From the IMG/VR virus record IMGVR_UViG_3300032038_000033, positions 40,461 through 104,460 of that record: a DNA stretch of 64,000 nucleotides; one strand, written 5' to 3'. The position numbers and the translations under genes are program-made. The notes under the pieces are model-generated. The model worked only from the letters and a program-made list of their open reading frames with translations, was not told where the DNA came from and did no database searches. Positions 3,126 through 50,526 of the stretch are shown piece by piece (the stretch's first letter is position 1; the number at the start of each line of letters is the position of its first letter). Source of the DNA: a virus (lineage: Duplodnaviria; Caudoviricetes).

Positions 3126-3179
3126 TTAATAGTTTATTTAGATTTTTATTAAACCTTTTTAATATTTATGTGTTATACT
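3126..3179 (+). promoter_or_regulatory. direct-repeat/N31 class promoter
   Basis: TTAATA-N5-TTTAGA, 31 bp, TATACT preceded by TGT. Confidence 0.7.
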
Positions 3180-3252
3180 AATTATATAAAAAGAGGAACA
3201 CATAAATGTTGAAAAGGTTTTTAAATTTTTGTATTATAAGGAGGCTTTATTT

Positions 3253-3477
3253 ATGAATAATAAGAATAATTTCACATTAGGTGGTAGGGATTTAACTAAA
3301 GGTAGATTATCTACAATGGAAACCACCTTTCTCGCTGCTAATCTAAATAGTATCGAAAAAGAAAGAAATGAACAAAAGTATTTTTCTGAAACTACACCGT
3401 CAAGTATTAAAACTATTGCTACTATAATTGTAATTGCAATTATTATTTTACAGTGCTTGCCAATATTTTTCAAATGA
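3253..3477 (+). CDS. small membrane protein
   Basis: AAGGAGG RBS; C-terminal hydrophobic helix. Confidence 0.6.
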   Translation: MNNKNNFTLGGRDLTKGRLSTMETTFLAANLNSIEKERNEQKYFSETTPSSIKTIATIIVIAIIILQCLPIFFK

Positions 3478-3618
3478 CTTAATTTAATATTTATAAAAAC
3501 TTGTTTATTTGTTAATTTTTATGTGTTAAAATAAATTTGTAAAGAAAGAAAATTAGAGAAAAAAAATGTAGAAAGTGAGGTTGTTTGCAAGATATTAAAT
3601 ATCTTGGAGGTAGAAATT

Positions 3619-4188
3619 ATGAGAAGGAGTACACTATTAAATAAATCTAAATCAATTATACTTAATAATCATATTGTTGATAATATACTAAATAATACAT
3701 TAACAACAATTATCATGCCAGTTACTAATAAAAATTTATACAGTGCTAATGATATACTTTATTGTAAGGAAAGCGTTTATGTAGTTCCGCTTAGTATTGC
3801 AGTAGAATTTGAGAAGAAGAACAATATAGAACGAACTTCATTTGATGAAACATATAGTTATTATTATACGGAAAAAATCTTAGATTTGAATGATTTTTCA
3901 GGTGTGGTTAAATCTAATACGAAAAATAATTGTAGATGTTTTATAAAGGTAACTAAATCAGTTCTTTGTAATACAGATTATATTACTGATGATATTGCTA
4001 AGTCTTTAGGTTTTGAAAATAAGAAGGAACTTGCCAAAAGTTATAATTCATATATAAAGTATTATTTAGACATGACGTGTAAGAATGAATGTCAGAAAGT
4101 AAATCTATTTAAAAATATTTATCAGTTTAATAAAAATCCTGATATTCAGTTAGTTTCATTTGAGCGATTAGAAAGCTCTGATGAATAA
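3619..4188 (+). CDS. ASCH/PUA-like phage protein (divergent)
   Basis: DILYCKE, ITDDIAKSLGF and NPDIQLVSFERL match the pattern of phage ASCH-like proteins. Confidence 0.5.
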   Translation: MRRSTLLNKSKSIILNNHIVDNILNNTLTTIIMPVTNKNLYSANDILYCKESVYVVPLSIAVEFEKKNNIERTSFDETYSYYYTEKILDLNDFSGVVKSNTKNNCRCFIKVTKSVLCNTDYITDDIAKSLGFENKKELAKSYNSYIKYYLDMTCKNECQKVNLFKNIYQFNKNPDIQLVSFERLESSDE

Positions 4189-4293
4189 CATATAAGAATA
4201 TTTACTAATTATTTATTTATATTCAATTAATAATGACACTACTAATATAAAATAGTAGTGTCATTATTATTTTTTGCAAAGGAGATAATTAAA

Positions 4294-4767
4294 ATGGTAA
4301 TAGATACAAGTACAATAGTTGTGATTTGTAGTGTTATCACATCTGTTGCCGGCGCAGGTGCCGTTATAAATAAAAGTATTAAGAAATGGTCCGATAAAGT
4401 CACCGATAAACTTAAAGCTGATATTATGAAGGAAGTAGGTGTTGATATGGACGCTATGAAAAAGGAATTTGCTGAAAAGTATAGTTCAGCGGTCGCAGAT
4501 TTTAACGCTAAGTTAGATATTGTTGTAAGTGCTATGACTGAAACTAAACAATATCGAAGTAAGAGAGAAAATGATGAAAAGAAATTTAGATTAGCAACAT
4601 TAAAAGGTCTTATTGTATCTGCGCACGGTACTTATGTGCCTATAGGTAAAATAGACACTCACGTTCTAAGTACACTTGAAGATGTTTATGATGAGTATAA
4701 AGAACTGGGTGGCAATCATTTTGTTGATAATCTAATGGAAGATTTAAGAAAATTACAAAAAATATAA
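4294..4767 (+). CDS. holin-like membrane protein
   Basis: N-terminal TM helix, coiled coil and YxxLGGN C-terminal motif typical of Firmicute phage lysis-module proteins; ACTAATA at 4241. Confidence 0.55.
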   Translation: MVIDTSTIVVICSVITSVAGAGAVINKSIKKWSDKVTDKLKADIMKEVGVDMDAMKKEFAEKYSSAVADFNAKLDIVVSAMTETKQYRSKRENDEKKFRLATLKGLIVSAHGTYVPIGKIDTHVLSTLEDVYDEYKELGGNHFVDNLMEDLRKLQKI

Positions 4768-4782
4768 GGAGGTTGATTTAAA

Positions 4783-6165
4783 ATGTCAACTGAAATAGCA
4801 ACAAACGGTATTCAATATACAGATAGATATAATAGCTCAGTTGGATATAAATGCTGTACAACCGTAGAACATAATATTATATTAACTCATAATAGTTCTA
4901 TACAACCCACAACAGTTGATATTCCGCAAACTGATGCTAATTGTCATGTTCTTATGATGCATTTATATAATAATGATACATTAGTTAACTTGTGTAATGT
5001 ATCAAATATTGAAATTAAATTTATATGTGGAGATAAAACAGTTATTGGTGATTATCGGAGATTAGCTATTGTTAATGCTTGCAAAGGCATAGTGTCCTAT
5101 TTATTAGACAAAGATGCTACAAGTCATTTAGGTACTAATTCTATAAAATTAACATTAACTATCGGTACAGGTACAGTTACATTTGACGGCACATATAACG
5201 TAGTTCCAAATGTTCAAACTGATACTACTACTATTGTATTACCTGATACTTGTAGAGATACAGAATATGTTTATGGTCCGTATTGTAGGCATACATTATC
5301 CTATAAAAATTCTTCTACAACTGATTCCGCAGATAGTGATGATGATTGTAATTGTGATTGCAATTGTCCTTCTTGTCCTGTATATCCTGACGGAGCTGAT
5401 GAAATAACACTTAGAGAATTATATTTTATTACAATGGGTCATATCAATAATAAATCTTTACACCTTAATAATAAGAGAATTGAAACTCTTAGTAGCTGTT
5501 TTAAAACTGTAGAAAATTATGCCGATTTACTTAATGAAATTAGTTGTTCTTGTAGTGGAGATAAAATAGCTAATGGTAGATTATATCGAGTTAATAATGT
5601 TAATGGTGAAGTGAAATATTATTATTGGGATGCTCCTTCTATTTCATTTAAAGAAACTACTTTTGGTAGTCAAGGTGAGCCTGGTAGAGACGCTGATGAC
5701 ATTACTTGGAATGAAACAGGCTATAGCGGAATAGTGAATTATAATGTAGGTAATTTAACTGCTGGTACTGACATATCTAATATGACTATTACTCAAATAT
5801 TAGCTAAGATGTTTGGTATGGGTAAAGTTGTGCCTACACCTATTATAATGGGCGAAAATGCAGAATATGATTATATTCAAACAATAGCTTTATCATTCCC
5901 GATTACAAATCTTGTAAATGAATTGGTTGCTAATATAGATTTAGAGAAAATAACTGTAACTGGCAATAAAGAATTTACAAGCAACATATTATTTGATGAT
6001 GTTAGCAATATGATAGTAATAACATTAAGTAGTTTACTTGAAGATACTACTATAACTATTAACTTTGCAGAAGGAACTGTTTCACAAACTGGCAATATAG
6101 AATATGGCTATGAGCTAACAACAGTAAATTCTGAGCAGAAAGAAATTACAATAAAAGTGAACTAA
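4783..6165 (+). CDS. virion structural protein with BppU-like N-terminal domain
   Basis: QTDANCHVLMMHLYNN...IVSYLL pattern of BppU N-terminal domain; short GSQGEPGRD collagen-like stretch; beta-rich C-terminus. Confidence 0.5.
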   Translation: MSTEIATNGIQYTDRYNSSVGYKCCTTVEHNIILTHNSSIQPTTVDIPQTDANCHVLMMHLYNNDTLVNLCNVSNIEIKFICGDKTVIGDYRRLAIVNACKGIVSYLLDKDATSHLGTNSIKLTLTIGTGTVTFDGTYNVVPNVQTDTTTIVLPDTCRDTEYVYGPYCRHTLSYKNSSTTDSADSDDDCNCDCNCPSCPVYPDGADEITLRELYFITMGHINNKSLHLNNKRIETLSSCFKTVENYADLLNEISCSCSGDKIANGRLYRVNNVNGEVKYYYWDAPSISFKETTFGSQGEPGRDADDITWNETGYSGIVNYNVGNLTAGTDISNMTITQILAKMFGMGKVVPTPIIMGENAEYDYIQTIALSFPITNLVNELVANIDLEKITVTGNKEFTSNILFDDVSNMIVITLSSLLEDTTITINFAEGTVSQTGNIEYGYELTTVNSEQKEITIKVN

Positions 6166-6192
6166 ATGAATCTTTTAAACTAATTTATAAAT

Positions 6193-6236
6193 ATAAAGGG
6201 TATCGTTTTATTTGAGATGCCCTTTATAATTTTTTA
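6193..6236 (+). terminator. intrinsic terminator
   Basis: ATAAAGGGTATC/GATGCCCTTTAT hairpin followed by T-run. Confidence 0.7.
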
Positions 6237-6317
6237 TGTTTTATTTACATTAATTTAATTTTATATTAATACATACACGTCTTAAATGTGTTATAATTAG
6301 TGTAGAAAGAAAGGTGA

Positions 6318-6803: not shown

Positions 6804-6806
6804 AAG

Positions 6807-6860
6807 TTAACATTTATTTAACATTATTATAACACGTTTTACATAAATATATGTTATACT
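6807..6860 (+). promoter_or_regulatory. direct-repeat/N31 promoter of the first tRNA operon
   Basis: TTAACA-N5-TTAACA (6807-6823), 31 bp, TATACT 6855-6860. Confidence 0.8.
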
Positions 6861-6874
6861 AATAAATGTAGAAA

Positions 6875-6994: not shown

Positions 6995-7000
6995 ATATAA

Positions 7001-7075
7001 GGTCGGTTGGTCAAGTGGTTAAGACATTGACCTTTCACGGCAAAGTCACGGGTTCAATTCCTGTACCGACTACCA
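7001..7075 (+). tRNA. tRNA-Glu(TTC)
   Basis: Cloverleaf, loop CTTTCAC, GGTTCAATTCC T-arm, encoded CCA; one anticodon-stem mismatch. Confidence 0.9.
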
Positions 7076-7084
7076 AATCCGAAA

Positions 7085-7214
7085 TTATAAAATGATAGCT
7101 GATTTTATTTGAGTAGGCGTTGCTCACGTTACGAGAAGTCAGTTTTACGTTTCTGGCGCATAGGAAATTTAGATTAACGTGACCAATGGTTGTGAGGTAA
7201 ATCAACCTCCTATG
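7085..7214 (+). ncRNA. two-hairpin RNA with possible kissing loops
   Basis: AGCTGATTT/GAAGTCAGTT and CATAGGA/TCCTATG stems; loop segments TCACGTTA and TAACGTGA are complementary. Confidence 0.4.
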
Positions 7215-7215
7215 T

Positions 7216-7291
7216 TGGGTATTAGCCAAGTGGTAAGGCAGAGGACTTTGACTCCTTCATTTCGCTGGTTCAAATCCAGCATACCCAGCCA
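7216..7291 (+). tRNA. tRNA-Gln(TTG)
   Basis: TGGGTAT/ATACCCA acceptor, loop CTTTGAC, CCA. Confidence 0.93.
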
Positions 7292-7378
7292 TAGCCTATA
7301 AAGGCTTATTCATTTTTAATTTCTCGTTTCTGACAAATCGGAATAGACGGTTGACAGCTTGGACAGACAAGTATTTAT

Positions 7379-7449
7379 GTACCTGTAGTAGGTAGAGCAC
7401 CGTCCTTTTAAGGGGGTTGTCGTGAGTTCAAGTCTCACCAGGTACACCA
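7379..7449 (+). tRNA. degenerate tRNA-Lys(TTT) with truncated D-arm
   Basis: GTACCTG/CAGGTAC acceptor, CTTTTAA loop, normal T-arm and CCA, but the 5' D-stem (GCTCAG) is missing. Confidence 0.6.
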
Positions 7450-7451
7450 TT

Positions 7452-7556
7452 AAGAGTAAAGCGTTTATTCTGCTTAAAAAATTAGTTAACTTCCTTTTAT
7501 TTATTTGATGGATTGTGATTAGCAGAATGAGTTGGTTAACGAATAGCTTTACTCTT
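7452..7556 (+). ncRNA. structured RNA, closing stem plus pseudoknot (copy 2)
   Basis: AAGAGTAAAGC/GCTTTACTCTT; crossing helices ATTCTGCT/AGCAGAAT and TTAGTTAAC/GTTGGTTAA. Confidence 0.55.
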
Positions 7557-7560
7557 GTGC

Positions 7561-7637
7561 CGAGGTGTAACTCAGCTTGGTAGAGTGCTTGGTTTGGGAC
7601 CAAGATGCCATAGGTTCAAATCCTGTCACCTCGACCA
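7561..7637 (+). tRNA. tRNA-Pro(TGG)
   Basis: CGAGGTG/CACCTCG acceptor, loop TTTGGGA, CCA. Confidence 0.93.
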
Positions 7638-7662
7638 TAAAATAAGAAAGGAGTTAAGCAAA

Positions 7663-8085
7663 ATGATTACTTTATTAGAAAGTAAAGATAATGCCTTAAT
7701 AGGTATTTGGTGGTGGACTGGTAATGAAATCATTGGTAAATCTTGTTTAGTTGACAATGGATTTACAGATAATCGTTACATTCAATATTCTGATAAAGAA
7801 AATCATTTAACTCTTTGGAGAAAAATATGCGAAGAAAACAATATACCTAAAGAAATCATAAATAAAGGATATAAGTATTATGAGAGGGGAAGAGTAATCT
7901 ATAATCTTATGTCACAAAGTTTTGAAGTTATTCTTAGTCAAGATTTATATGGTAATAAAGATTTTAAACGTGAGTGTAAAGATTATTTCAATTTATATAA
8001 TTGTCGAGTAGAATTTATTCCATTAAATCATTATTACCGAGTTGATACAGATAATCCAGCTATATTAGATTTTGAATACGATTAA
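7663..8085 (+). CDS. hypothetical protein, N-terminal MITLLE motif
   Basis: AAGGAG RBS before ATG 7663; the longer 7555 start overlaps tRNA-Pro. Confidence 0.7.
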   Translation: MITLLESKDNALIGIWWWTGNEIIGKSCLVDNGFTDNRYIQYSDKENHLTLWRKICEENNIPKEIINKGYKYYERGRVIYNLMSQSFEVILSQDLYGNKDFKRECKDYFNLYNCRVEFIPLNHYYRVDTDNPAILDFEYD

Positions 8086-8133
8086 AGATAGGAAAGAATT
8101 TATTTACGATTATCTTAAAAGAATTACTAAAGT

Positions 8134-8187
8134 TTAACAATTACTTAACATTTATATAACATATTTTTAAATAATATGTGTTATACT
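8134..8187 (+). promoter_or_regulatory. direct-repeat/N31 promoter of the second tRNA operon
   Basis: TTAACA-N5-TTAACA (8134-8150), 31 bp, TATACT 8182-8187. Confidence 0.8.
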
Positions 8188-8366
8188 ATAATAGTAATAC
8201 AAATAAATAAGATTGGTGCTACGGGCTATGACTATGTTTACAACGTTTATGATATAGAGGCATCCGTTCGGGATATCCTCTTAGAGGAGTTGAACTTAAT
8301 AATAGGCTTTGAGTATTACACCAGCAGTAGTTAAATGGAGTTTGATGAACAGCCAATTTTATATAG

Positions 8367-8443
8367 GTGCCTTTAGCTCAGTTGGAAAGAGTAACTGCCT
8401 TCTAAGCAGTAGGTTATTGGTTCAAATCCAATAAGGCATACCA
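8367..8443 (+). tRNA. tRNA-Arg(TCT)
   Basis: GTGCCTT/AAGGCAT acceptor, ACTGC-CTTCTAA-GCAGT anticodon arm, CCA. Confidence 0.92.
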
Positions 8444-8779
8444 TATAAAGATTGTAGTGAGTATAAAGCCATAAGAAATTAAGATTTCAATGTACAAACT
8501 TATACTTTATAACTTCCGTACAAGGTTTAGTGTAAGAGAAATCAGAGATTAGATAAATGGTGTAGCGGTAGCACGTTTCCACTATAAGGAAAAGGGTAGC
8601 AGTTCAAGCCTGCATTTATCGACCAAAAAGAAAATCTCTTAAAATTAGTATCTTATGAAAAACAATGGTAAAATGAGAAGTTACAACTTAGTCGGTTTGG
8701 AGAAAGACTGTAGGTAAGTGATGTGTACACAAATCCTACCCATTGTCCTATAGGTGAAAATCCTATAGCAATCTTTATA
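8444..8779 (+). ncRNA. large structured RNA containing a nested tRNA-like element
   Basis: TATAAAGATTG/CAATCTTTATA closing stem, T-arm-like hairpin CTATAGG-TGAAAAT-CCTATAG at the 3' end, AGAGATT/AATCTCT stem enclosing 8551-8625. Confidence 0.5.
8551..8625 (+). tRNA. tRNA-like element, anticodon loop ACTATAA (nominal TAT, no U33)
   Basis: D-arm GGTGTAGCGGTAGCAC, TTTCC/GGAAA stem, GCAG-TTCAAGC-CTGC T-arm, ACCA end. Confidence 0.55.
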
Positions 8780-8785
8780 ATATAT

Positions 8786-8875
8786 CTATGTGTAGTATTT
8801 ATATCATGATACGCTCTGGCCAGAATATAAATATGATATTGGAAAATGTTAGTTCGATTCTAACCACATAGGCCA
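8786..8875 (+). ncRNA. tRNA-like RNA (acceptor and T-arm, aberrant middle)
   Basis: CTATGTG/CACATAG-G-CCA acceptor; GTTAG-TTCGATT-CTAAC T-arm; no canonical D or anticodon arm. Confidence 0.55.
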
Positions 8876-9108
8876 GCTGACTTGTCAATGTCGTTAAACT
8901 TGATAAGTGACAACAGCTTGAAAGCAATTTGGAAGTTGACGGTTCGTTTCCGTTTTAATGCAGAGTTTGGCTGCGCAATGACCTCTTTGTAAATGTGATT
9001 CCTCCTACTTGTTGCCGCTGTAAGGTGATTTATGAGTAAAAATACCGAAAGATATTTACAGCTATTGATTAGGTAAAGCTATCGTAGAGGATTGCCGATA
9101 GCAGATAT

Positions 9109-9184
9109 GCTGAATAATCCAAAGAAACGAGGTAATTTCCAAAGTGAAATTAATTAATTGGTGTAAGTCCAATATTCAGCACCA
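9109..9184 (+). ncRNA. tRNA-like RNA
   Basis: GCTGAAT/ATTCAGC-A-CCA acceptor, ATTGG-TGTAAGT-CCAAT T-arm-like hairpin, TAATTTC/GAAATTA stem with 6-nt loop. Confidence 0.5.
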
Positions 9185-9331
9185 GAGTTCCAGATAGCTT
9201 TAGAGGAAATACACATAAAATTTAGCTATCATAATTGTGTGTGGCGAGTGATACGTTGCATAAGGCTATTAAGTTAGGTCTGTTTATATCACAATAACTT
9301 ATGACAGTCTGGAAAGACAGACATTCATAAT

Positions 9332-9418
9332 GCTGCTGTGGTGGAATAGGCAGACACCTCGGACTTAAAATCCGATGATAGAAATATCGTACCAGTTCAA
9401 GTCTGGTCAGCAGCACCA
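9332..9418 (+). tRNA. tRNA-Leu(TAA)
   Basis: Leu-type D-arm GGTGGAATAGGCAGACAC, loop CTTAAAA, long variable arm, CCA. Confidence 0.93.
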
Positions 9419-9423
9419 TTTAT

Positions 9424-9499
9424 TCCTCCTTAACTCAGTCGGTAGAGTGACGCTCTGTTAAAGCGTAGGTCGTTGGTTCAAGTCCAACAGGGGGAGCCA
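9424..9499 (+). tRNA. tRNA-Asn(GTT)
   Basis: ACGCT-CTGTTAA-AGCGT anticodon arm, GCCA end. Confidence 0.93.
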
Positions 9500-9511
9500 T
9501 TTTAGGTATAA

Positions 9512-9602
9512 GGGCGTTAAATAAGCTACCAATGTATTAAATTCTAAACGGTGAAACGTTGAACGTTGGGTAGAGCGAGAATTTAATCCTTATTTAGCGC
9601 CC
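9512..9602 (+). ncRNA. structured RNA, closing stem plus pseudoknot (copy 3)
   Basis: GGGCGTTAAATAAG/CTTATTTAGCGCCC; crossing helices CTACCAATGT/ACGTTGGGTAG and ATTAAATTCT/AGAATTTAAT. Confidence 0.6.
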
Positions 9603-9610
9603 GTCTATAA

Positions 9611-9685
9611 GGCCCTTTGGTCAAGTGGTTAAGACGAGAGCTTTTCACGCTCTAATCGTGGGTTCGATTCCCGCAAGGGTCACCA
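9611..9685 (+). tRNA. tRNA-Glu(TTC), second copy
   Basis: AGAGC-TTTTCAC-GCTCT arm, GGTTCGATTCC, CCA. Confidence 0.93.
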
Positions 9686-9686
9686 T

Positions 9687-9828
9687 ATAGCCTATATAAG
9701 TTTAGTTTTTATCTTAGTTGTGGTTGTTGCGAATGAAACCGTCCTTTCATTAGTAAGTCTAATATTAAAAAATTAACACCCTCACAGTTAATTATTTATG
9801 TTTATTGACTAAATACTATATAGGCTAT
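9687..9828 (+). ncRNA. long irregular hairpin RNA
   Basis: ATAGCCTATATA/TATATAGGCTAT ends; nested TTTAGTT/GACTAAA and TTAGTTGTGG/TCACAGTTAA stems. Confidence 0.4.
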
Positions 9829-9833
9829 TATCT

Positions 9834-9909
9834 GTGTCTGTAGCTCAGTTGGTAGAGCAGAGCACTTTTAATGCTAAGGTCAAGGGTTCAAATCCCTTCA
9901 GGCACACCA
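9834..9909 (+). tRNA. tRNA-Lys(TTT)
   Basis: GTGTCTG/CAGGCAC acceptor, loop CTTTTAA, CCA. Confidence 0.93.
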
Positions 9910-10046: not shown

Positions 10047-10100
10047 TTAATAATTAGTTTACATTATTATAAAGACAACTTAATAAATATCTGTTATACT
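10047..10100 (+). promoter_or_regulatory. direct-repeat/N31 promoter
   Basis: TTAATA-N5-TTTACA, 31 bp, TATACT. Confidence 0.8.
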
Positions 10101-11889: not shown

Positions 11890-11943
11890 TTAATAATTTC
11901 TTTACAAATAAAATAAGTATTAGTAATAAATATATGTTATACT
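11890..11943 (+). promoter_or_regulatory. direct-repeat/N31 promoter
   Basis: TTAATA-N5-TTTACA, 31 bp, TATACT. Confidence 0.8.
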
Positions 11944-13876: not shown

Positions 13877-14022
13877 CTAAAAATTTAATAGTTTTAACAA
13901 TATAAGTTCTACAATTTATATGTAGAACTTATATTTATTTATACTTAATTTACAAAATTACATATATTTATTAATACGATATGTGTTATAATGTAATTAT
14001 ACAATTAAAAGGGGTATATTTT

Positions 14023-14670
14023 ATGAAGATAGGATTAAATGATATAAATAAAACATATTATGCCGTTAGAAAAGGTTATAATCCTGGCATATATGATAAT
14101 TGGGAAGATTGTAAAAAGCAAATACATAAATATAGTGGAGCAGAGTATAAGAAATTTAAAAATAAAGTTGATGCTGAAAATTTTATTAAGGGTATTGAAT
14201 TTAATAATGATATTAGTGATATAGATACTACTAATTATTATAAAGCATATACTGACGGTAGTTGTGATAGAGATAATGGTATATTTTCTTATGGCTTTGT
14301 TATACTTGATAATAATGATTTTGTTATTACAAGATGCTATCAAGGATATGAAAATAGCGAGTTTAAAGAACACGCTAATATTTCTGGTGAGTGTTTTGGT
14401 GTTCTTAAAGCATTGAAATATTGTGTTAAAAACAATATTAGCAATATTATTATATATCATGATTATTTAGGTGTATCTCAGTGGGCTAATGATTTGTGGC
14501 AAACTAATACACCTATATCTAAGTATTATAAAGCAGAAATAGATAAATTTCGTGATAAACTTAATTTTAAATTTGTGTGGGTAAGAGGACATCAAGGTAA
14601 TAGGTACAATGAGCAGGCTGACCAATTAGCTAAGTTAGGACTTAAAAATTTTACTCAATCTTTCCTTTAA
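14023..14670 (+). CDS. rnhA: ribonuclease H1 with caulimovirus viroplasmin-type N-terminal domain
   Basis: YYAVRKGYNPGIYDNWEDC domain; YTDGS, GE, HDY, WVRGH and NEQADQLAK RNase H motifs. Confidence 0.92.
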   Translation: MKIGLNDINKTYYAVRKGYNPGIYDNWEDCKKQIHKYSGAEYKKFKNKVDAENFIKGIEFNNDISDIDTTNYYKAYTDGSCDRDNGIFSYGFVILDNNDFVITRCYQGYENSEFKEHANISGECFGVLKALKYCVKNNISNIIIYHDYLGVSQWANDLWQTNTPISKYYKAEIDKFRDKLNFKFVWVRGHQGNRYNEQADQLAKLGLKNFTQSFL

Positions 14671-17938: not shown

Positions 17939-19186
17939 ATGGTGGTTTATGTTTTAGATATTGAGGGTAAACCTTTAATGCCTACTACAAGATTTGGCAA
18001 AGTAAGAAGAATGTTGAAAAATAAAGAAGCTAAGGTAGTTAAAAGAGAACCTTTTACTATTCAACTTCTTTATAAATCAACTATTTATACACAGCCTATA
18101 AATCTTGGTGTTGATGCTGGTAGTAAGACTATTGGTATTTCTGCTACTACTTCTGATAAAGAATTATTTTGTGCAGAAGTAAAATTAAGAAATGATATAG
18201 TTAATTTAATTGTTACAAAAAGAGAAGCAAGAAGAAATAGACGTAATAGAAAAACAAGATATCGTAAGGCAAGATTTAATAATAGAATTAGTACGAAGAA
18301 AGAAGGTTGGTTAGCTCCTTCTATTCAAAATAAGATTAATTCACATCTTACGATAATTGACAAAATAACAAAAATATTGCCGATTACAAATATTATAGTT
18401 GAAGTAGCTTCATTTGATATTCAGAAAATTAAAAATTCTAACATTCAAAGTAAAGAATATCAAGAAGGTGAACAACTTAGTTTTTGGAATGTTCGGGAAT
18501 ATGTTTTGTTTCGTGATAAGCATATCTGTCAATGTTGTAAAGGTAAATCAAAAGATAAGATACTTAATGTTCATCATATTGAAAGTAGAAAAACTGGTGG
18601 AAATGCCCCAAACAATTTAATTACTTTATGCGAAACTTGTCATACTAATTATCATAAAGGAAAAATTAATTTACCTAAGAATATAAAGCGTGGTATAAGT
18701 TTTAAAGACGCTACTTTTATGGGAATTATGCGTTGGGCTTTCTATAATAAATTAAAAGAAATTTATACAAATATAAAAATGACTTTTGGCTATATTACTA
18801 AAAATATAAGAATTAATAATAATTTGCCAAAAGAACATTATATTGATGCAAGATGTATAAGCGGAAATCCATTAGCTAAATCATTAGGAATTTGTTATAA
18901 ATATAAAAAAGTTAGATGTCATAATAGACAAATACATAAATTTGTTCCTAACAAGAAAGGTATAAGACAAGCTAATCAAGCATCTTATAAAGTATTTGGT
19001 TTTAGACTTAATGATAAAGTTTTATATAAAGGTCAAGTTTGTTTTATTAATGGTAGAAGACAAAGTGGTTATTTTAGTTTAAGAGATATTGATAACAATA
19101 AGATTGGAAATGATAATGTTTCTCATAAAAAGTTAAAATTTTTAGAACACAAAAAATCTTTACTTTGTCAATCTATTGTAATTTAA
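17939..19186 (+). CDS. iscB: RNA-guided endonuclease IscB
   Basis: PLMP, RuvC-I GVDAG, Arg-rich bridge helix, RuvC-II VEVASFD, HNH (CQCC..VHHI..NLITLCETCH), RuvC-III HYIDA. Confidence 0.95.
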   Translation: MVVYVLDIEGKPLMPTTRFGKVRRMLKNKEAKVVKREPFTIQLLYKSTIYTQPINLGVDAGSKTIGISATTSDKELFCAEVKLRNDIVNLIVTKREARRNRRNRKTRYRKARFNNRISTKKEGWLAPSIQNKINSHLTIIDKITKILPITNIIVEVASFDIQKIKNSNIQSKEYQEGEQLSFWNVREYVLFRDKHICQCCKGKSKDKILNVHHIESRKTGGNAPNNLITLCETCHTNYHKGKINLPKNIKRGISFKDATFMGIMRWAFYNKLKEIYTNIKMTFGYITKNIRINNNLPKEHYIDARCISGNPLAKSLGICYKYKKVRCHNRQIHKFVPNKKGIRQANQASYKVFGFRLNDKVLYKGQVCFINGRRQSGYFSLRDIDNNKIGNDNVSHKKLKFLEHKKSLLCQSIVI

Positions 19187-23409: not shown

Positions 23410-23777
23410 TATAAATAAAACATAAACATTGTGGCATAAAAATACTACAATGTTTATGTTTTATTAACATTTAATTTATTTTAAAAACATAATTATGTGT
23501 TATAATTTTAGTACAGTTAAGTGGAGGTTTAAAAAACATTGGATAATTATTTCATCACATACACTAATAAAGACGAGTTTAATAAAATTATGAACTATGC
23601 TTCTTCCATAAGTGCTAAACTACCTAATGGACATTATATATCTAAATATGGTAAGAAAGCATTATTTATAGAAGGAACTGCCTATATTATATTCGAGAAA
23701 AAGAAAGATACATACTACATAAATAATGTCATAGAAGTTGATAAGAATACATTTACAGAAAAGAGTTTAGATGAACT

Positions 23778-24788: not shown

Positions 24789-24894
24789 AAATTAACAATT
24801 GTTTTACTAAAATATAATATTATTTTAAAACTTCTTTGTTATAATTATAGTGATAAGGAAGTTTTATTTTTTTTTAATAAGGAGTTGAATAATT

Positions 24895-26107: not shown

Positions 26108-26461
26108 ACAGACAACTATGTACTGAGTTTCTAAGTAAACTTTTAGTAAAAGAAAAACTTAGTGGAATGGGTAATTATTATGCAAAAGAAGTGACTTTTG
26201 ATTACGGTACAGACCATTCTATCAGAGTTGATTATATACAGTTTAAACCCTTGAATCAACTATGTATTGACGGTATAGAAAAAGGTGAATTTATCTGCTA
26301 TGAAATCAAGTCTTGTATAGAAGATTTTAATAAACTAAATCTGTAATATACTAATATAAAACATTAAATATTTCTTACTAAATATAACTAATTATTAATA
26401 TTATTATACTTATTAAAAATTTAATATTTACAGATTACAGTAAATATGTTATAATGTAGTC

Positions 26462-26607: not shown

Positions 26608-28014
26608 ATGAAACATAAGAATACTAATGAAATTACATTAAAAATAAAATATCATACTGATAATTCTGATAGAATTTGTGACTATATAAAGAATTATAAT
26701 AATGTTCTTAGATTTGTTTATAATAGGCTTTATGATAATATTAATCACGAATTATCTACTAAAGATTTATTGTCTGATATTAGAACAATAAATAATATTT
26801 TTGTAGATACTTATTTTAAAAATGGAGCTATCTATGAAGCTCGTTCTATGTTTTCTGATAGTAAAGAACAAGAACATAAAGTTATTTTTGGTGGTAAGAA
26901 ATTGTTTATACAGAGGTGTCAAAATAAAATAAGTAAAGAAGAATTTAATATAAAAAGACTTCACCCTTTACAAATTGTCGGAGCATCATATAATAATGGG
27001 AATTGTAAATTTCAGATTATAAATGAAAATACTATATTATTTAAACCTTGTAGAAATGAACATTTTATATTACATCTTAGTAGTGTAGGCAAAAATTATA
27101 CTAAATATTTAACCAAATTAATTCAAGCTCAGAATAATTGTGATATTGCAATTACATATAAACTTGGCTTAGAATATGTTTATATATCGTTTGATTTAAA
27201 TAAACTAAATAAACCTAAAGAAACAAACTGTATTGATAATCGTATATTTGCTATTGACCTTAATCCTAATTATATAGGTTATAGTGTTATAGATTGGAAA
27301 AATTCTGATAATTTTAATATAGTTAATTCTGGTGTAATATCAAATAAGCCGCTTACAGATTATGATAAATCGGTTATAAGAAGTAGTGATAGTCCAGAAC
27401 ATCATTATATTACTAATAAAAGAAATTATGAAGTTACTAAAATAGCTCACGATTTAGTAAAGTTAGCTAAACATTATCAATGTCAAATTTTTGCCATTGA
27501 AGATTTAAAAATAGAATCTAAAGATAACAAGAAAGGCAATAGATATAATCGGTTAGTAAATAATCAATGGAATAGAAATTTATTAATAAATATTATTACT
27601 AAAGATTGTTTACAAAATTCAATAAGATTACAAAAAGTGGTTGCAAATTTTACTTCTTTTGTCGGCAATTTAGTTTATAGAAGTTTACAATTACCTGATA
27701 TGATTTTAGCTTCTATTGAAATTTCCAGAAGAGCCTATGAATTTTATCATCAATATATTATTAAAGATAAACCTATAACAAAGAATATAGTTTTTAATAG
27801 TTCTGAGTTAGCTAAAATTAGTATTGAAAAGTCATTGGAAGAATTTGGATATACTAAGACTTGTGATTCTATTAAAGATTTATATAATAAATTAAAGAAA
27901 ACGAGATGTAATTATCGTTTTCCTTTGGAACAGTCTTTATTATTAAGACCTAAACAAAGTCTTTTTAGCAAAAACTATATAAAACGAATGATAATTTATT
28001 ATGAATTTAAATAG
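26608..28014 (+). CDS. tnpB: TnpB/Cas12f-related RuvC protein
   Basis: RuvC-I AIDLNP, RuvC-II AIEDL, TSFVG, RuvC-III LPDMILASIEISRRA; no C4 Zn finger. Confidence 0.8.
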   Translation: MKHKNTNEITLKIKYHTDNSDRICDYIKNYNNVLRFVYNRLYDNINHELSTKDLLSDIRTINNIFVDTYFKNGAIYEARSMFSDSKEQEHKVIFGGKKLFIQRCQNKISKEEFNIKRLHPLQIVGASYNNGNCKFQIINENTILFKPCRNEHFILHLSSVGKNYTKYLTKLIQAQNNCDIAITYKLGLEYVYISFDLNKLNKPKETNCIDNRIFAIDLNPNYIGYSVIDWKNSDNFNIVNSGVISNKPLTDYDKSVIRSSDSPEHHYITNKRNYEVTKIAHDLVKLAKHYQCQIFAIEDLKIESKDNKKGNRYNRLVNNQWNRNLLINIITKDCLQNSIRLQKVVANFTSFVGNLVYRSLQLPDMILASIEISRRAYEFYHQYIIKDKPITKNIVFNSSELAKISIEKSLEEFGYTKTCDSIKDLYNKLKKTRCNYRFPLEQSLLLRPKQSLFSKNYIKRMIIYYEFK

Positions 28015-31773: not shown

Positions 31774-31827
31774 TTAATAATATGTTTACATTATTTATAA
31801 TTAATTGTAATAATTATCTGTTATACT
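31774..31827 (+). promoter_or_regulatory. direct-repeat/N31 promoter
   Basis: TTAATA-N5-TTTACA, 31 bp, TATACT. Confidence 0.8.
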
Positions 31828-32879: not shown

Positions 32880-32933
32880 TTAATAATTTATTTACACATA
32901 ACACATACTAAGTTAATTAGTATGTGTTATACT
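32880..32933 (+). promoter_or_regulatory. direct-repeat/N31 promoter
   Basis: TTAATA-N5-TTTACA, 31 bp, TATACT. Confidence 0.8.
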
Positions 32934-37091: not shown

Positions 37092-37145
37092 TTAATAATT
37101 TATTTACATATTTATAACGACAGTGTAACAAATATCTGTTATACT
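37092..37145 (+). promoter_or_regulatory. direct-repeat/N31 promoter
   Basis: TTAATA-N5-TTTACA, 31 bp, TATACT. Confidence 0.8.
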
Positions 37146-37208: not shown

Positions 37209-38359
37209 ATGAATAATAAAAGATATATCACTAAGGAAGAAATCAAGAAAATCAATGACCTTAACAATAGTGTTAGAGGAACTTCTGAATACACTAAATA
37301 TCATATGATGCAGGAATTTAAGTATAAAAAAGATGGTAAATGGACTCACTGGATTTATGCAGGTTATATAGACCGTATCTATAGAAAAAATCTTTTTGTT
37401 AAGACTGTAAAGAATAAGGTTTATCTTGTTACTGAAACCTTTACTGAGCTCGGTGGTGATACAGTAGATAGATATGAAGTTACAGATACTATTAAGGAAG
37501 TTCTTGGACTTTAAAAAAGGAGTAATTGAAAATGAGTACATACTATGAAAGAAAAACCACTACTGAATATCAAGTAGGTGATATTGCTTATGCAGATTTG
37601 TATGACACAGTAACTCTTATGGATAAGATAGTAGGTGAAACTGGCACAATTTATTGGATAGTTAAGAGTGACCTTACAAGTGAATTACATCTTATAGAAG
37701 AAACTAATTTACTTGAAGTAGGTTATTACGGTGATTAAGGGAGGGGTTAAATATATGTTAGAGTATAAAGGTGAATTCATTGAAAGTTTAAGTGACGAAG
37801 AACTTGATAAAGGGTTAGTAAAAGTATTTATTCCTGACCCTGATGGCGTTGTATCAGGTGAAAGTATTTGGGGATATTTAGATAGAACTAAATATACAGA
37901 TAAAGATAAATCTGTAAGAGTTATTCTTCTAAACAATTCATTTTGTTACATACGTCTATTGAATTGGGGAACTGAAATTGTTTGTAAAAACAATGATGAA
38001 AGATTTAAGTTAGATGTTGATTGGCTTAATGAGGAGAGAAAGAAATGGTAGAAACAAGTAAAACGTCAATAGAATTTCCTACAGATGAAGAAGCAATAGA
38101 ATATTGTAAAGAAAATGGAATACCTTACAGTAATATTCATTACATTGTAGATAGGGTATTTGTAGAAACGGAAGAAACTAATGTAACTGAAAAATGTAAA
38201 AATAAGAAATTTGAAGTACAATTTTTAACCTCGATAAATACAGTCGGAGTTATTTATATTTTCGCCGAAAATGAAGATAAAGCTATTCAAATAGCAAAAG
38301 ACAAATGGCAAGGAGAAATTAAAGTAATTTTAGCAATTATGGAGTGTGAAAAAGATTAA
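37209..38359 (+). other. operon of four small hypothetical ORFs (37209, 37526, 37731, 38045)
   Basis: Abutting ORFs, each with an RBS. Confidence 0.6.
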
Positions 38360-38409
38360 TAATTTATTTACATTATTATAAAACGGAGTTAATATTTATA
38401 GTTTATACT
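38356..38409 (+). promoter_or_regulatory. direct-repeat/N31 promoter
   Basis: TTAATA-N5-TTTACA, 31 bp, TATACT. Confidence 0.75.
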
Positions 38410-39005: not shown

Positions 39006-39059
39006 TTAATTTTTAATTTACATTAGTATAAAACTTTTGTAATAAATATTTGTTATACT
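39006..39059 (+). promoter_or_regulatory. direct-repeat/N31 promoter
   Basis: TTAATT-N5-TTTACA, 31 bp, TATACT, after terminator 38955-38992. Confidence 0.75.
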
Positions 39060-40512: not shown

Positions 40513-40566
40513 TTAATATTAAGTTTACAAATTTAATAAGATTTTGCAACATTTATTTGTTATAAT
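40513..40566 (+). promoter_or_regulatory. direct-repeat/N31 promoter
   Basis: TTAATA-N5-TTTACA, 31 bp, TATAAT. Confidence 0.75.
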
Positions 40567-44095: not shown

Positions 44096-44149
44096 TTTAT
44101 ACTTTGTTTACAAATAAAATAAGTAGTATTAATATTTATATGTTATACT
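44096..44149 (+). promoter_or_regulatory. direct-repeat/N31 promoter
   Basis: TTTATA-N5-TTTACA, 31 bp, TATACT. Confidence 0.75.
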
Positions 44150-46299: not shown

Positions 46300-46463
46300 T
46301 ATTCTATGATATGTAAATATTTTTTAAAAAAGTGGCTCTATTGATTAGGGCTACTTTTTATGTTTATCTTTAAATTTAACAATTTGTTTATATAAAAACA
46401 ATACTTTTTTAACTTATTTAGTATATAATTACTATATAATAATTTATAGGAGTTGATACTTTT

Positions 46464-47016: not shown

Positions 47017-47406
47017 TTGAGTTTAGATGATAAGCCTGAGCGTATTATGATTTCTGTATATCCTGAATATGCTGACAAACTTATAAAGGGTACTAAAATA
47101 TACGAGTTTAGAAAAACTGCACCTAAAAGAATTGTTCATAAGATTGTTCTTTATGAAACAAAACCTATAGGACTTGTAACTGCGGAAGCAGAAGTAACTG
47201 GACTTTGTGTAGGAACACCTGAAATGATTTGGGAACATTGTAAAAACGGTGCAGGAATGACTAAAGATGAATTTTTTGAATACTATGGAGATGCTAAAGA
47301 AGCCGTAGCTTATAGAATTGGTAGATTAGAACTATTCAATGAACCCTTAACTTTACAAGATTATAATTTAAAATGTCCACCACAAAATTTTGTTTATTTG
47401 GACTGA
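47017..47406 (+). CDS. ASCH domain protein
   Basis: ISVYPEYADKLIKGTKIYEFRK...YETKP...PPQNFVY. Confidence 0.85.
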   Translation: MSLDDKPERIMISVYPEYADKLIKGTKIYEFRKTAPKRIVHKIVLYETKPIGLVTAEAEVTGLCVGTPEMIWEHCKNGAGMTKDEFFEYYGDAKEAVAYRIGRLELFNEPLTLQDYNLKCPPQNFVYLD

Positions 47407-48148
47407 TGACTATGAAAGTGTATAAAATTTCAAATAGAATAAGTTACAATAAAACTAATTATAACAAAAACAGAAATAAAAAAGAAAATAGTTTTGATAA
47501 CGATTTTGAAATTATGTTAGACCAAGAGTATGAAAAATTAGGTGAAAATGATGACAGTATTAGACGAAGCAATAGACCGACTTACAAATGTACTACAAAA
47601 CAAACATCTAAGTGAAAAAACAAGACAGGATATTGTTGAAACTATAAAATGGCTTATAGAATTTAAAGAAAAATGTGAAAGGAAGTAGTGTTTATGTATT
47701 TTAAATGTTCAAAAACTTTTATTATCCCTATGATTGATAATAATGGTAATAGGTATGGTAAGGATATTAAAGTTAAAAGAGGTAGTATATTTAAAAGTGA
47801 AACTCCTATAAGTGAAATTAGAGATACCGATAAATCTGTTAGACTTAGAGGTGTGAATAGTTTACTTACATTTGATATTGTTAAGAAAGATTTTGTAAGT
47901 GTATTTAAGCCTTATTGTCCATCTGAAATTGCCGATAAAATTGTAGAGATACTTAATACACAGGAAGGATTTATTAATCTCACTCGTAAAGAAGAAAATG
48001 GTGAGGTAGTTTATTATAGAGATAATGGCAGAAAATTTAATCTTTGTAATATTCCCGAAAAATATAAGAAGTTAGTTGAAAAATATGATTTCAATAATTA
48101 TGAATATCCAGATGTAGCTGATTATCTTATTTAAAAGAAGGAATATAA

Positions 48149-48487
48149 ATGATACGAAGAAAGACCTCAGAGAAACCTTTAAAAGAAGAAAGAGAATTGC
48201 ACATTAACATTTATATGGACGATAATGATGTTTGGATAGCCGAACTCTATACTAACATTCACAAATATCATACTCGTTGTATAAAACAAGGTTGGGAACA
48301 GATTAGTGAAACAACTCATGTAGACGGTAGTTGGGTAGACGGTACTTATCGTGCGCCTGCAAAAGCTATTAGTATAGGCAAAGCAGTTAAGCCTAAGAGA
48401 ATTATGAGTGAAGAACAAAAGAAAGCTGCTGCTGAACGTATGCAAAAGTGGCGTGAAGCTAAGAGTAAGGAGATTAATAATGAGTAG
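48149..48487 (+). CDS. hypothetical protein
   Basis: ERELHIN...KPKRIMSEEQKKAAAERM pattern. Confidence 0.6.
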   Translation: MIRRKTSEKPLKEERELHINIYMDDNDVWIAELYTNIHKYHTRCIKQGWEQISETTHVDGSWVDGTYRAPAKAISIGKAVKPKRIMSEEQKKAAAERMQKWREAKSKEINNE

Positions 48488-48690
48488 GTTATTTAATGAA
48501 GATGAACACATTTCTGATGTAGTTGAAGAAGATAATATTCTTAATCCTATTGTTTATGATTTATTTAAACTTATACTAAAAGAAAAGTGTAATCATATTA
48601 ATTTTAGTCAAAGTTCTATTGATGAAATTATTAGGGATGCTATTCATTGTGAAGAACTTTTAGCGAAATACAATATTGTGAAAGGAAATA

Positions 48691-49152
48691 ATGAAAATGA
48701 TAGCTGATACTATTTTGGGTAGAATAACTGTAATTATGAATGTAGAAGATTTTTCTGATTCTGACAAAATTGCTCGTATAAAAGAAGAACTGAATTATTT
48801 AAAAGAAGTTATGGACGAAAACTATGAAAAGGATTGGTCTAAGTTTACTAAAGAAGATGTTGATGATTTAGGTTTTATGCTTTGGACAGACGACCAGTCT
48901 ATTACAGAAGAAATTGAAAGAATTAATAATGATAAAGATTATAGTGCAGAAGAAAAAGAAGAATTAATAGCGAAAACAAATAACACTAAAGGTCTTTATC
49001 TTATTCCACAGTATCTTATTAACTGTATTCCAACTGGTACTAAATTATACACTATTTTCGGTAATGAAGTCATTTATGACGGCAATAATATTGATGATGA
49101 TGCTCGATTTGGAGCATTAGCTTATGGCATACATATAAAGGAGGATAATTAA
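48691..49152 (+). CDS. hypothetical protein
   Basis: LGF..W..LYLIP...IDDDARFGALAYG. Confidence 0.6.
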   Translation: MKMIADTILGRITVIMNVEDFSDSDKIARIKEELNYLKEVMDENYEKDWSKFTKEDVDDLGFMLWTDDQSITEEIERINNDKDYSAEEKEELIAKTNNTKGLYLIPQYLINCIPTGTKLYTIFGNEVIYDGNNIDDDARFGALAYGIHIKEDN

Positions 49153-49154
49153 TT

Positions 49155-49535
49155 ATGAAAGTATTTATTTCACAGCCTATGAAGGACAAGACAGATGAAC
49201 AGATTAAAGCAGAGAGAACAAGAGCTATTGAAAAGATTAAAGAATTTCTTAAAGATGAGGAAGATAAGAATATAGAAATTCTTGATAGCTTTTTTGAAGG
49301 TGCTCCACACGATGCCAAGCCTTTGTGGTTTTTAGGTAAGTCTTTTGAAATTCTTTCACAGGCCGATGTAGCCTATTTTGTTTCAGGTTGGGATAATTAC
49401 AGAGGTTGTAAACTTGAATATGAAGCAGCTTCTGAATACGGTATTACTACTATCATAGAAACTTATTCCAATAACGATATTATTTATACTAAGGAAAGAA
49501 CCATTACTGATTACAATGATTTAACTAAAGGATAA
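49155..49535 (+). CDS. DUF4406 / nucleoside deoxyribosyltransferase-like protein
   Basis: VFISQPM, ADVAYF.GW...RGCKLE. Confidence 0.75.
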   Translation: MKVFISQPMKDKTDEQIKAERTRAIEKIKEFLKDEEDKNIEILDSFFEGAPHDAKPLWFLGKSFEILSQADVAYFVSGWDNYRGCKLEYEAASEYGITTIIETYSNNDIIYTKERTITDYNDLTKG

Positions 49536-49541
49536 GTTAAA

Positions 49542-50429
49542 ATGAAAGAAGTAGTTGATTTTAAAGGAATTAAGTACAATAGTATAAATCAAATGTGTAA
49601 GGCATATAATATTGACCCTTGTACTTTTAATGAAAGACTTAGAAGAGGTTATAATTTAGAAAAAGCTTTAACTTTTCCTATCACATCACCTTCAAAATCT
49701 ATTGTAGACTTTGAAGGTAATAGGTTTGATAGCATTACTAATATGTGTAAGTATTACAATATAAGTGTAGTTACTTATAGAGCGAGATTACGCAGTGGTT
49801 GGGATTTAAAGAAAATTTTAACCACTCCTATTGGATATAATTATATTACTGCTACAGATTTTAATGGTAATAAGTATAGGAGCGTTGCTTATATGTGTAG
49901 TCATTTTGGTATTCCAAGAAAGAGTTATATTTATAGAATTAATAATGGTTGGTCACAAAAAGAAGCTTTAACTATTCCAGTTGGATGTAAGCCACCTATA
50001 AATGAAAGACTAAGTAATGTAGTCAAGCAAACATATAATGTTAATTCTGAAGAATTTCAAGAACGTAAGTATTTATCAGTTGTTATATTAAATCCACAAA
50101 CACAGGAAAAGATACAGGTTATTACCGACTATAAAGGGAATGTATTTTCTTCTAAATCTAAATTACTTAAACATTATGATGTTTATGATAAATGGTTTGA
50201 TAATAAATTAGTCAAGGAAGGTCTTAAAGCTGCCTTAACAAGAAAACAAATTAAAGACCATTTAGGTAATGTTTATAGTTCTAAGACAGCTATGTATAAA
50301 GCATATGGACTTAAAAAGCAAACTGCTGAATTTCGTTTAGAAAGAGGTTGGACTTTAGAACAAACTCTAACAACACCAGTAAATCAAAAACCTAAAAGAG
50401 TACCTAATTATGTGACAATAGTTAAGTAA
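49542..50429 (+). CDS. tandem-repeat putative DNA-binding protein
   Basis: About 5 repeats D(F/H/Y)xGxxYxSxxxMCxxYxI...RL..GW.L..ALT.P; no nuclease motif seen. Confidence 0.65.
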   Translation: MKEVVDFKGIKYNSINQMCKAYNIDPCTFNERLRRGYNLEKALTFPITSPSKSIVDFEGNRFDSITNMCKYYNISVVTYRARLRSGWDLKKILTTPIGYNYITATDFNGNKYRSVAYMCSHFGIPRKSYIYRINNGWSQKEALTIPVGCKPPINERLSNVVKQTYNVNSEEFQERKYLSVVILNPQTQEKIQVITDYKGNVFSSKSKLLKHYDVYDKWFDNKLVKEGLKAALTRKQIKDHLGNVYSSKTAMYKAYGLKKQTAEFRLERGWTLEQTLTTPVNQKPKRVPNYVTIVK

Positions 50430-50472
50430 GAAAAAAGGAGATTAGTTTTATTTTAACTAATCTCCTCTATTA

Positions 50473-50526
50473 TTTATACTAAGTTTACATTTTTGTAAAA
50501 TGTATTTTACATTTATATGTTATACT
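50473..50526 (+). promoter_or_regulatory. direct-repeat/N31 promoter
   Basis: TTTATA-N5-TTTACA, 31 bp, TATACT. Confidence 0.75.

Follow-up and report, generated by a model that had tools for sequence, protein, structure and literature searches.

Pho-box-like hexamer arrays in place of the -35 element define a predicted early/middle promoter class in a lineage of large phages, with a host PhoP-type regulator as the possible reader

In phage phi29, sites for the host response regulator Spo0A couple phage development to the state of the host; Spo0A represses phi29 and belongs to a regulator family other than OmpR. At the middle promoters of phage T4 an activator box replaces the -35 element, often together with an extended -10, the MotA box lying at -30 and AsiA being needed. 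Promoters of phage Mu that depend on Mor or C have a -10 and no -35 element (PMC2582627, PMC4390567), and the site bound by Mor consists of two 5-bp inverted repeats with their centre at -43.5 (PMC4390567). Control by the host phosphate two-component system, PhoBR, has been reported for a few cyanophage genes: these lytic phages (P-SSM2, at pstS; S-PM2d) carry sites for the host regulator, and genes including that of the DNA polymerase respond to host phosphate status, a handful of genes having degenerate boxes beside normal promoters (PMC10976474). The PhoP consensus of Bacillus subtilis is TT(A/T/C)ACA-N4-6-TT(A/T/C)ACA (PMC12404567), and its Pho box comprises four such repeats with 11-bp periodicity (PMC11870197); for the core binding site these papers cite Liu & Hulett 1998 and Eder et al. 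1999. Here we analyze a 64,000-nucleotide stretch of phage DNA (hereafter ‘the window’), namely bases 40461-104460 of the 104,460-bp IMG/VR record IMGVR_UViG_3300032038_000033 (G000), which is estimated to be 58% complete, and a recurrent promoter-like element in it that consists of phased hexamers followed by a -10.

An earlier note on this DNA had listed 17 promoters in which a hexamer-N5-hexamer direct repeat (hereafter ‘the box’), set at a fixed distance from the -10, is used instead of a -35 element. All 17 coordinates indeed hold such a box followed by TATA(C/A)T, and the gap between the two is 31 bp at 16 of the 17 sites and 32 bp at 13938. TGT, described as the usual sequence before the -10 hexamer, is found there at 15 of the 17 sites, the exceptions being 38356 (GTT) and 46376 (GTA). 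The absence of a -35 element was also borne out: the mean match to TTGACA/TTTACA is 2.7/6, compared with 3.1/6 at random TATAMT hexamers, whereas the two transposon promoters proposed as an internal control (26427 and 55723) score 6/6 for a -35 at 17 bp. The listed sites all stood, and what the list had missed was a site with a 42-bp spacer at 6233, a weak site at 3479, two further repeats of the array (R3 and R4 below) and eight sites upstream of the window.

We also searched the whole record. The pattern TTWAYA-N5-TTWAYA-N31/32-TATAMT gave 18 matches on the forward strand, none on the reverse strand and none with a reversed-pattern control. A position weight matrix (PWM) of the box only, blind to the -10, gave 20 forward matches at 14 bits or more, none on the reverse strand and none in shuffled sequences, and almost all strong boxes are followed by TATAMT at a distance of exactly 31 bp. 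There are about 26 box promoters in the record, 19 of them in the window (Table 1). All occupy intergenic DNA, share the orientation of the genes and stand 14-96 nt 5' of the next open reading frame (ORF) or of tRNA clusters, and 11 of the 26 have a terminator hairpin directly 5'. The box elements are therefore predicted to be real promoters, forming an early/middle class of a large-myovirus lineage, and about 26 nearly identical -35-less promoters would drive most of the non-structural genes of this phage of an AT-rich anaerobe. We considered a tandem-promoter reading, with TTTACA as the -35 of an upstream promoter, and rejected it because no -10 follows at 16-18 bp. A TATACT...AGTATA palindrome across the -10 and the start site occurs at some sites only and was judged to be a by-product of TA-rich sequence.

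The array consists of four hexamers in 11-bp phase: R1 (TTAAYA, -60 to -55), R2 (TTTACA, -49 to -44), a weak R3, and R4 (KTAAYA, -27 to -22). Judged as a four-repeat Pho box, it has strong R1 and R2 hexamers and a moderate R4, with R3 marked only by A-35. R2 is TTTACA or TTAACA at most sites, and no base of the promoter carries more information than its C-45 (frequency 78%), with 1.8 bits against a genomic C content of 10.6%. Several positions are conserved although they were not used for site selection, namely AA at -64/-63, T-53 (93%), A-35 (93%), (T/G)TAAYA at -27 to -22, T-19, T-17 and TG at -15/-14; we take T-17 and this TG to represent the TRTG motif found in extended -10 promoters of Gram-positive bacteria. 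No -35 accompanies the core, a strong extended -10 of the form T(A/C)TG-T-TATACT. The only dyad is partial (T(G/C)TAAA-N12-TTTACA, centred near -55.5). The whole array can sit exactly one helical turn further upstream (spacer 42/43), and the distances within the four-hexamer unit are unchanged at spacer-42 sites, where the extra turn is inserted before the -10. The hexamers thus appear to stand, on one face of the helix, in place of the -35 element.

Such an array might work with no activator at all, if the extended -10 suffices and the phased AT-rich repeats act as a UP-element or curved-DNA module for the alpha C-terminal domains of the host polymerase. The position of the array, at -60 to -40, is the usual one for a UP element, and the array is AT-rich, helically phased and tolerant of a one-turn shift. 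Positions -57 to -47 match 9 of the 11 positions of what we take to be the distal UP subsite of Escherichia coli, and at three bacterial loci the box stands 9 bp 5' of a normal TTGACA -35. However, the best conserved base is a C in a C-poor genome, which argues for base-specific reading in the major groove and not for minor-groove reading of A-tracts, and conservation extends as far as -22. In addition, the bacterial box marks a coherent regulon of Pho and regulator genes, with no inspected match before rRNA or ribosomal-protein genes. We therefore consider a UP-like function improbable.

The resemblance to the Bacillus PhoP box claimed in the earlier note holds for the direct repeat, the 11-bp period and the TT(A/T/C)ACA hexamers (PMC12404567, PMC11870197), R1 matching at 6/6 positions as TTAACA and at 5/6 as TTAATA. 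The resemblance to the WalR consensus TGTWAH-N5-TGTWAH, read as the reverse complement, holds as well: TTAACA-N5-TTTACA becomes TGTAAA-N5-TGTTAA and fits at 12/12 positions, or at 11/12 with TTAATA (PMC9210968). The two consensus sequences cannot be separated on these sequences. With the Pho promoters of B. subtilis, the phage promoters share direct TT(A/T/C)ACA-like repeats at 11 bp, up to four of them, if the weak R3 is counted, from about -60 towards -20, and an array that takes the place of the -35 before a sigma-A -10. In contrast to them, the phage array drives replication, nucleotide, tRNA and small-ORF genes and not phosphate scavenging; its R1 is mostly TTAATA, its R3 is weak, it can move one turn upstream, and PhoP binding to it is only predicted. 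Whereas the cyanophage boxes concern a handful of genes, the promoters described here form a uniform -35-less class whose 26-42 copies serve the greater part of the non-structural genome, the phages here being those of AT-rich, Firmicutes-type hosts. The Mu promoters resemble them in having a -10 without a -35, a host polymerase of the sigma-70 type and a small phage activator (here a Mor-like candidate, discussed below), but the Mu sites are inverted repeats at -43.5, whereas the phage box repeats its hexamers directly, with the centre near -52 or -63. In other words, host PhoBR control of a few cyanophage genes and activator-dependent -35-less promoters of the Mu type are already known, and what is new is a uniform class of 26-42 Pho-box-like promoters over the non-structural genome of large phages of Firmicutes-type hosts.

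The box is used by four genomes: this record, G004, G006 and G003. G004 is a 66-kb record with 40-90% protein identity to G000 and shared gene order, and it has about nine box promoters with spacers of 31 and 42. G006 (272 kb, 96% complete; 64% identity in the RecA-like protein) has 41 strict matches on one strand against a single match on the opposite strand; its promoters total about 42, with spacers of 31 (about 28 sites), 32 (5), 42 (6) and 43 (2). G003 (220 kb, 96% complete, G+C 38%) shows only 25-55% protein identity; close to one end of the genome it has four TTTACA-N5-TTTACA-N31-TATAAT promoters, which precede small ORFs. We pooled 72 boxes from the four genomes, chosen without regard to the -10, and found that 65 have TATAMT at a spacer of 31, 32, 42 or 43, compared with about 0.85 expected by chance; the counts were 46, 6, 11 and 2, respectively, and at most 6 for any other spacer. 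An orthologous promoter 3' of the RecA-like gene has kept its 42-bp spacer in three genomes while the spacer sequence has diverged, which suggests that the element is under selection for helical phase. At the G006 promoters with spacers of 42/43 (reverse-complement 142859, 166044, 182643, 191203 and 192384) and at G004 22108, an extra element, AATACTTTAATT, stands at about -39 to -29, where spacer-31 promoters carry KTAAYA; the -10 region of these promoters is TAGT(A/G)TATACT and not TGTTATACT. Within IMG/VR the strict box was found almost only in relatives of this phage, and the nrdD-related record MT835469 has no box.

The genes behind the boxes are those for DNA polymerase A, helicase, primase, RecA, RNase H, thyX and dUTPase, tRNAs, and many small ORFs without an assigned function. 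In G006, the structural modules (tail at 25-42 kb and portal to baseplate at about 60-131 kb, with identified genes at 86-125 kb) cover 88 kb of tail, portal, sheath and baseplate genes and hold only 2 of the 42 promoters (P ~2e-5), which indicates that the class serves early/middle genes. Pfam scans of the 154 ORFs of our record, which has a G+C content of 27% and nearly all its genes on the + strand, identified replication genes (DNA polymerase A, DnaB-type helicase, primase, clamp loader, RecA), nucleotide and DNA metabolism genes (7-deazaguanine/queuosine genes, nrdDG, thyX, NAD ligase, dUTPase, RNase H) and insertion elements (IscB and IS607). Window positions 7001-9909 contain eight tRNA genes. 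No structural gene, sigma factor or regulator was found among these ORFs, and given the lack of structural genes the record is taken to be the early/middle part of a large phage.

Next, we looked for the same promoters in bacteria. Among 185,579 bacterial genomes, TTAATAATTTRTTTACA-N31/32-TATAMT occurs at 11 loci, about the number estimated for chance; several of these loci are clearly not chance. A 4,891-bp contig (JAEELC010000189.1, L066) in the rumen Acholeplasmatales metagenome-assembled genome (MAG) Tb.RUG.207 encodes proteins 78-95% identical to those of the phage. It is a fragment of a very close phage relative and the sole hint of a host that we found, a weak one. A DNA search of 307 Acholeplasmatales genomes detected related phage DNA only in this contig, the two OmpR-type regulators of the same MAG have no box upstream, and no bacterial genome yielded a close relative of the IS607 TnpB when this protein was used to look for the host.

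Two gut Clostridiales MAGs (L058 and L062) carry the box with in-phase GTTATA and GGGACA hexamers, CTGTTATAAT and no -35, about 130 nt 5' of an OmpR-family regulator gene that is followed by genes for a histidine kinase and a PDZ protein. This regulator has one clear orthologue in 61 of 61 sampled genomes of its order. Among 30 orthologue upstream regions that were fetched, 11 contain TTNAC(A/C)-N5-TTNAC(A/C) at 19-20 or 31 bp from a -10, against 2 in reversed sequence, 0 in the reverse complement and 0.28 in shuffles. At loci L075-L104 the OmpR-family regulator, with its kinase, is usually divergent from ychF, and in-phase TTNACA repeats often lie 19-20 bp before a -10, an arrangement that suggests autoregulation. 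In a Clostridia MAG (L065) the box stands 5' of an HtrA protease gene. These loci bear on the possibility that the host regulator is an OmpR-family member other than PhoP, either WalR-like or an envelope regulator of the CssR/CiaR type. The reverse complement of the box fits the WalR consensus as described above, and an identical box precedes both HtrA and the Clostridiales regulator, whose best model is YycF (WalR). However, its YycF score of 245 bits is below the model cut-off of 340, wal operons have been reported not to be autoregulated (PMC9210968), and most bacterial matches with the phage spacing belong to Pho genes. We consider a regulator of this kind quite improbable.

The Pho genes were found in the Acholeplasmatales. 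A looser pattern gave 38 matches (by hand count) in 121 genomes of this order, compared with about 21 for the control. When TTTACA-N5-TTWACA was followed by TATAAT at any spacer from 15 to 45 in the same 121 genomes, 36 of 67 matches fell at 31/32 or 42/43, some of the 36 being overlapping or orthologous and hence not independent. The first ORFs behind these matches encode PstS-family lipoproteins (15 fetched and checked; two further, unfetched matches share the promoter sequence), Ppx/GppA (2), a Na/Pi cotransporter with a PhoU domain and a Zn phospholipase C, and also OmpR-family regulators, gyrB or parE and a family of 115-amino-acid proteins. All 11 fetched matches with spacer 42/43 precede PstS homologues and have three phased hexamers, and the phage-trained box PWM scores these pstS promoters of the Acholeplasmatales at 8-19 bits. 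At L138, L139 and L140 of this order, gyrB/parE lies behind TTTACA-N5-TTTACA placed 32 bp from an extended -10, in the layout of the Pho genes there. One Clostridia order also shows in-phase peaks, at 20, 31/32 and 41-43, so that the geometry is general in these bacteria and does not alone name the host.

Based on these results, we propose, with a probability of roughly 0.5, that the array is a tandem site for a host regulator of the OmpR/PhoB family, most likely a PhoP-type phosphate-starvation regulator. In hexamer, period and both spacers the match to bacterial Pho promoters is exact, which would be hard to explain by an unrelated phage protein. Under this proposal, the host sigma-A RNA polymerase would read the box promoters, a host PhoP-type regulator would bind the array head-to-tail and recruit the polymerase, and host Pho signalling would boost or gate early/middle transcription; the phosphate drain of phage DNA synthesis may itself switch that signalling on. 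The earlier note had envisaged an activator-dependent regulon driven by a host response regulator or a phage protein and tied to the envelope or phosphate status of the host. The former alternative is supported by the same repeats and spacers before bacterial Pho genes, an OmpR-family regulator gene and HtrA, while no phage-encoded regulator of the kind was found, and the phosphate link is better supported than the envelope/WalR link. We infer both the protein that binds the box and its connection to phosphate indirectly, from sequence.

We also searched for a reader encoded by the phages. The response regulator or winged-helix protein suggested in the earlier note could not be found in the record or in its two 96%-complete relatives: the OmpR-type winged helix Trans_reg_C (PF00486) is absent from G000, G003, G004, G006 and G007, and the receiver domain Response_reg (PF00072) from G000, with positive controls in both cases. 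The record and the same two relatives also gave no match for sigma-70 region 2 or 4, the beta/beta' subunits of a multisubunit RNA polymerase or a histidine kinase (HisKA), all with positive control genomes. A search for T7-type RNA polymerase found no match either and shows nothing, as its control matched in no genome. The phages thus appear to rely on the host polymerase.

There is nevertheless one candidate, a protein of 126 amino acids encoded at genome 38061-38441 (L036:1062-1439:+), 2 kb 5' of the window. Apart from replication and structural proteins, no other small protein is common to all four box-using genomes. In the ESM Atlas, the clusters closest to it bear the name Mor transcription activator family (score 0.95, 224/256 features, 26/30 hits), and one of these clusters has PF08765 Mor in 27% of its members; by language-model similarity only, the protein looks Mor/C-like. 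It also has an FGG-x3-x-IP motif in common with what we take to be the sequence of Mu Mor. The gene lies in an operon of about 6 kb, and in G000, G004 and G006 the promoter of this operon lacks the box and has a TTG-type -35 at 17 bp, which makes a Mu-like cascade possible: host polymerase alone would transcribe the small, -35-bearing early operon, whose Mor/C-like product would then activate the 26-42 middle promoters that lack a -35, as Mor does at Pm of Mu. That Mor/C-dependent promoters likewise have a -10 without a -35 (PMC2582627, PMC4390567), and that the box is lineage-specific and unusually uniform, would also fit a phage-encoded activator. On the other hand, the protein has no Pfam, PHROG or PDB-sequence match to Mor or to any other family, the PDB sequence search returning only spurious nucleoprotein matches, and its fold model, with a predicted local distance difference test score (pLDDT) of 61, is too poor for a fold search. 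The Mor site is inverted and centred at -43.5 (PMC4390567), in contrast to the direct repeat near -52 and also -63. In 33 further phage records, the 20-kb stretches that surround homologues of the protein lack the box; as these stretches contain few extended -10 promoters, the absence is uninformative. A second motif, CTACTAATAWT, may need an activator and may be the real target of the protein. Finally, a phage-encoded reader would leave it to coincidence that hexamer, period and spacer are exactly those of bacterial Pho promoters. Taken together, we regard a phage-encoded activator, which in its Mor/C-like form the earlier note had not raised, as less likely than a host regulator to be the reader of the box, but as the chief and a serious rival, well above the other two alternatives.

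Several observations weigh against a host PhoP-type regulator. The link to the Acholeplasmatales is one small binned contig, and no other genome of the order carries related DNA. That a phage with a lytic appearance should hand almost its entire early/middle transcription to a starvation regulator would be biologically odd. Compared with the bacterial regulator sites, the phage boxes vary less, with TTAATA and not TTTACA as R1, a conserved ATTTR between R1 and R2 and a conserved AAAG flank, features in keeping with a dedicated phage factor. In IMG/VR the exact box does not extend beyond this phage lineage, the phages encode the conserved Mor/C-like candidate, and the PhoP and WalR consensus sequences are indistinguishable here. 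With these points in mind, we suggest, tentatively and at somewhat less than even odds, that a lineage of 180-270 kb myoviruses gave up the -35 at nearly all early/middle promoters in favour of 26-42 Pho-box-like arrays, so that replication and takeover would be gated by a host PhoP-type regulator that responds to phosphate status or to the phosphate drain of the infection.

Other features of the phage genome were also noted. The second intergenic motif, (A)ACTACTAATAWT, occurs at window 4239, 10577, about 11150, 19401, 31378, 33610, about 43160 and 45895 and at genome 27727. It often lies 55-105 nt 5' of start codons, and often after an A-run and CAAC or within hairpins; it is found 5' of nrdD and, in G006, 5' of the tail sheath gene. 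This motif may be a late promoter or an RNA signal. Outside the window, at genome 10-14 kb (L034), there is a 7-deazaguanine pathway with GTP cyclohydrolase I, PTPS (QueD), QueC and a radical SAM enzyme, and the phage DNA may carry a modified guanine; the same region encodes a PemK/MazF-type toxin domain and a GroES-like protein. Insertion-element ORFs lie inside the phage at window 17939-19183, 26608-28011, 51453-52730 and 55811-57914. According to the Pfam scans at least two are IscB-type genes (RRXRR; one also HNH), and the third ORF of this list is probably also of this type, while the IS607-type element consists of a serine recombinase with a MerR helix-turn-helix (HTH) and TnpB. Two of these insertion elements carry the canonical TTTACA-N17 promoters.

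Table 1. Box promoters and canonical control promoters in the window (positions in window coordinates).
Feature	Position	Strand	Sequence elements	Context
Box promoter	3126..3179	+	TTAATA-N5-TTTAGA, spacer 31, TGT-TATACT	drives ORF at 3229
Weak box promoter, absent from the earlier note	3479..3532	+	TTAATT-N5-TTTATA, spacer 31, TGT-TAAAAT	5' of ORF 3604
Box promoter, absent from the earlier note	6233..6297	+	TTTATG-N5-TTTACA, spacer 42 (31+11), TGT-TATAAT	after terminator hairpin; drives ORF 6318
Box promoter	6807..6860	+	TTAACA-N5-TTAACA, spacer 31	drives tRNA cluster 7001-7637
Box promoter	8134..8187	+	TTAACA-N5-TTAACA, spacer 31	drives tRNA cluster 8367-9909
Box promoter	10047..10100	+	spacer 31	intrinsic terminator directly 5'; drives ORF 10135
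Box promoter	11890..11943	+	spacer 31	terminator 5'
Box promoter	13938..13992	+	spacer 32	hairpin 5'; 5' of RNase H gene (13981-14667)
Box promoter	23453..23506	+	spacer 31	3' of operon nrdD-nrdG-MFS (major facilitator superfamily)
Box promoter	24792..24845	+	spacer 31	5' of ORF 24895 and thyX
Box promoter	31774..31827	+	spacer 31; top box score, 27 bits	strong terminator 5'
Box promoter	32880..32933	+	spacer 31	
Box promoter	37092..37145	+	spacer 31; upstream flank TGTAAAG, inverted complement of TTTACA	terminator 5'
Box promoter	38356..38409	+	spacer 31, GTT-TATACT	orthologous copy in Acholeplasmatales MAG contig L066
Box promoter	39006..39059	+	spacer 31	terminator 5'
Box promoter	40513..40566	+	spacer 31	
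Box promoter	44096..44149	+	spacer 31	terminator 5'
Box promoter	46376..46429	+	spacer 31, GTA-TATAAT	terminator 5'; 5' of dUTPase-like ORF 46464
Box promoter	50473..50526	+	spacer 31	terminator 5'; last in window
Canonical control promoter	26427..26455	+	TTTACA-N17-TATAAT	IscB (RRXRR/HNH) element
Canonical control promoter	55723..55751	+	TTTACA-N17-TATACT	IS607-type element (resolvase with MerR HTH, and TnpB)

If a host two-component regulator reads the boxes, then the main early/middle promoter class of a phage would be a copy of a host stress-regulon promoter, in contrast to the cyanophages, where such boxes stand on a few auxiliary genes only. To our knowledge, there is no earlier case of a main early/middle class built in this way. 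Nutrient status would then have a direct way to set how fast infection proceeds in gut or rumen anaerobes. Should the boxes be read by the Mor-like protein instead, they would represent a new type of site and a new geometry for that family, with phages of Gram-positive-type hosts as the setting. In both cases the motif offers a practical marker for annotating promoters and operons in uncultured large phages, and its match to bacterial Pho promoters may aid host assignment.

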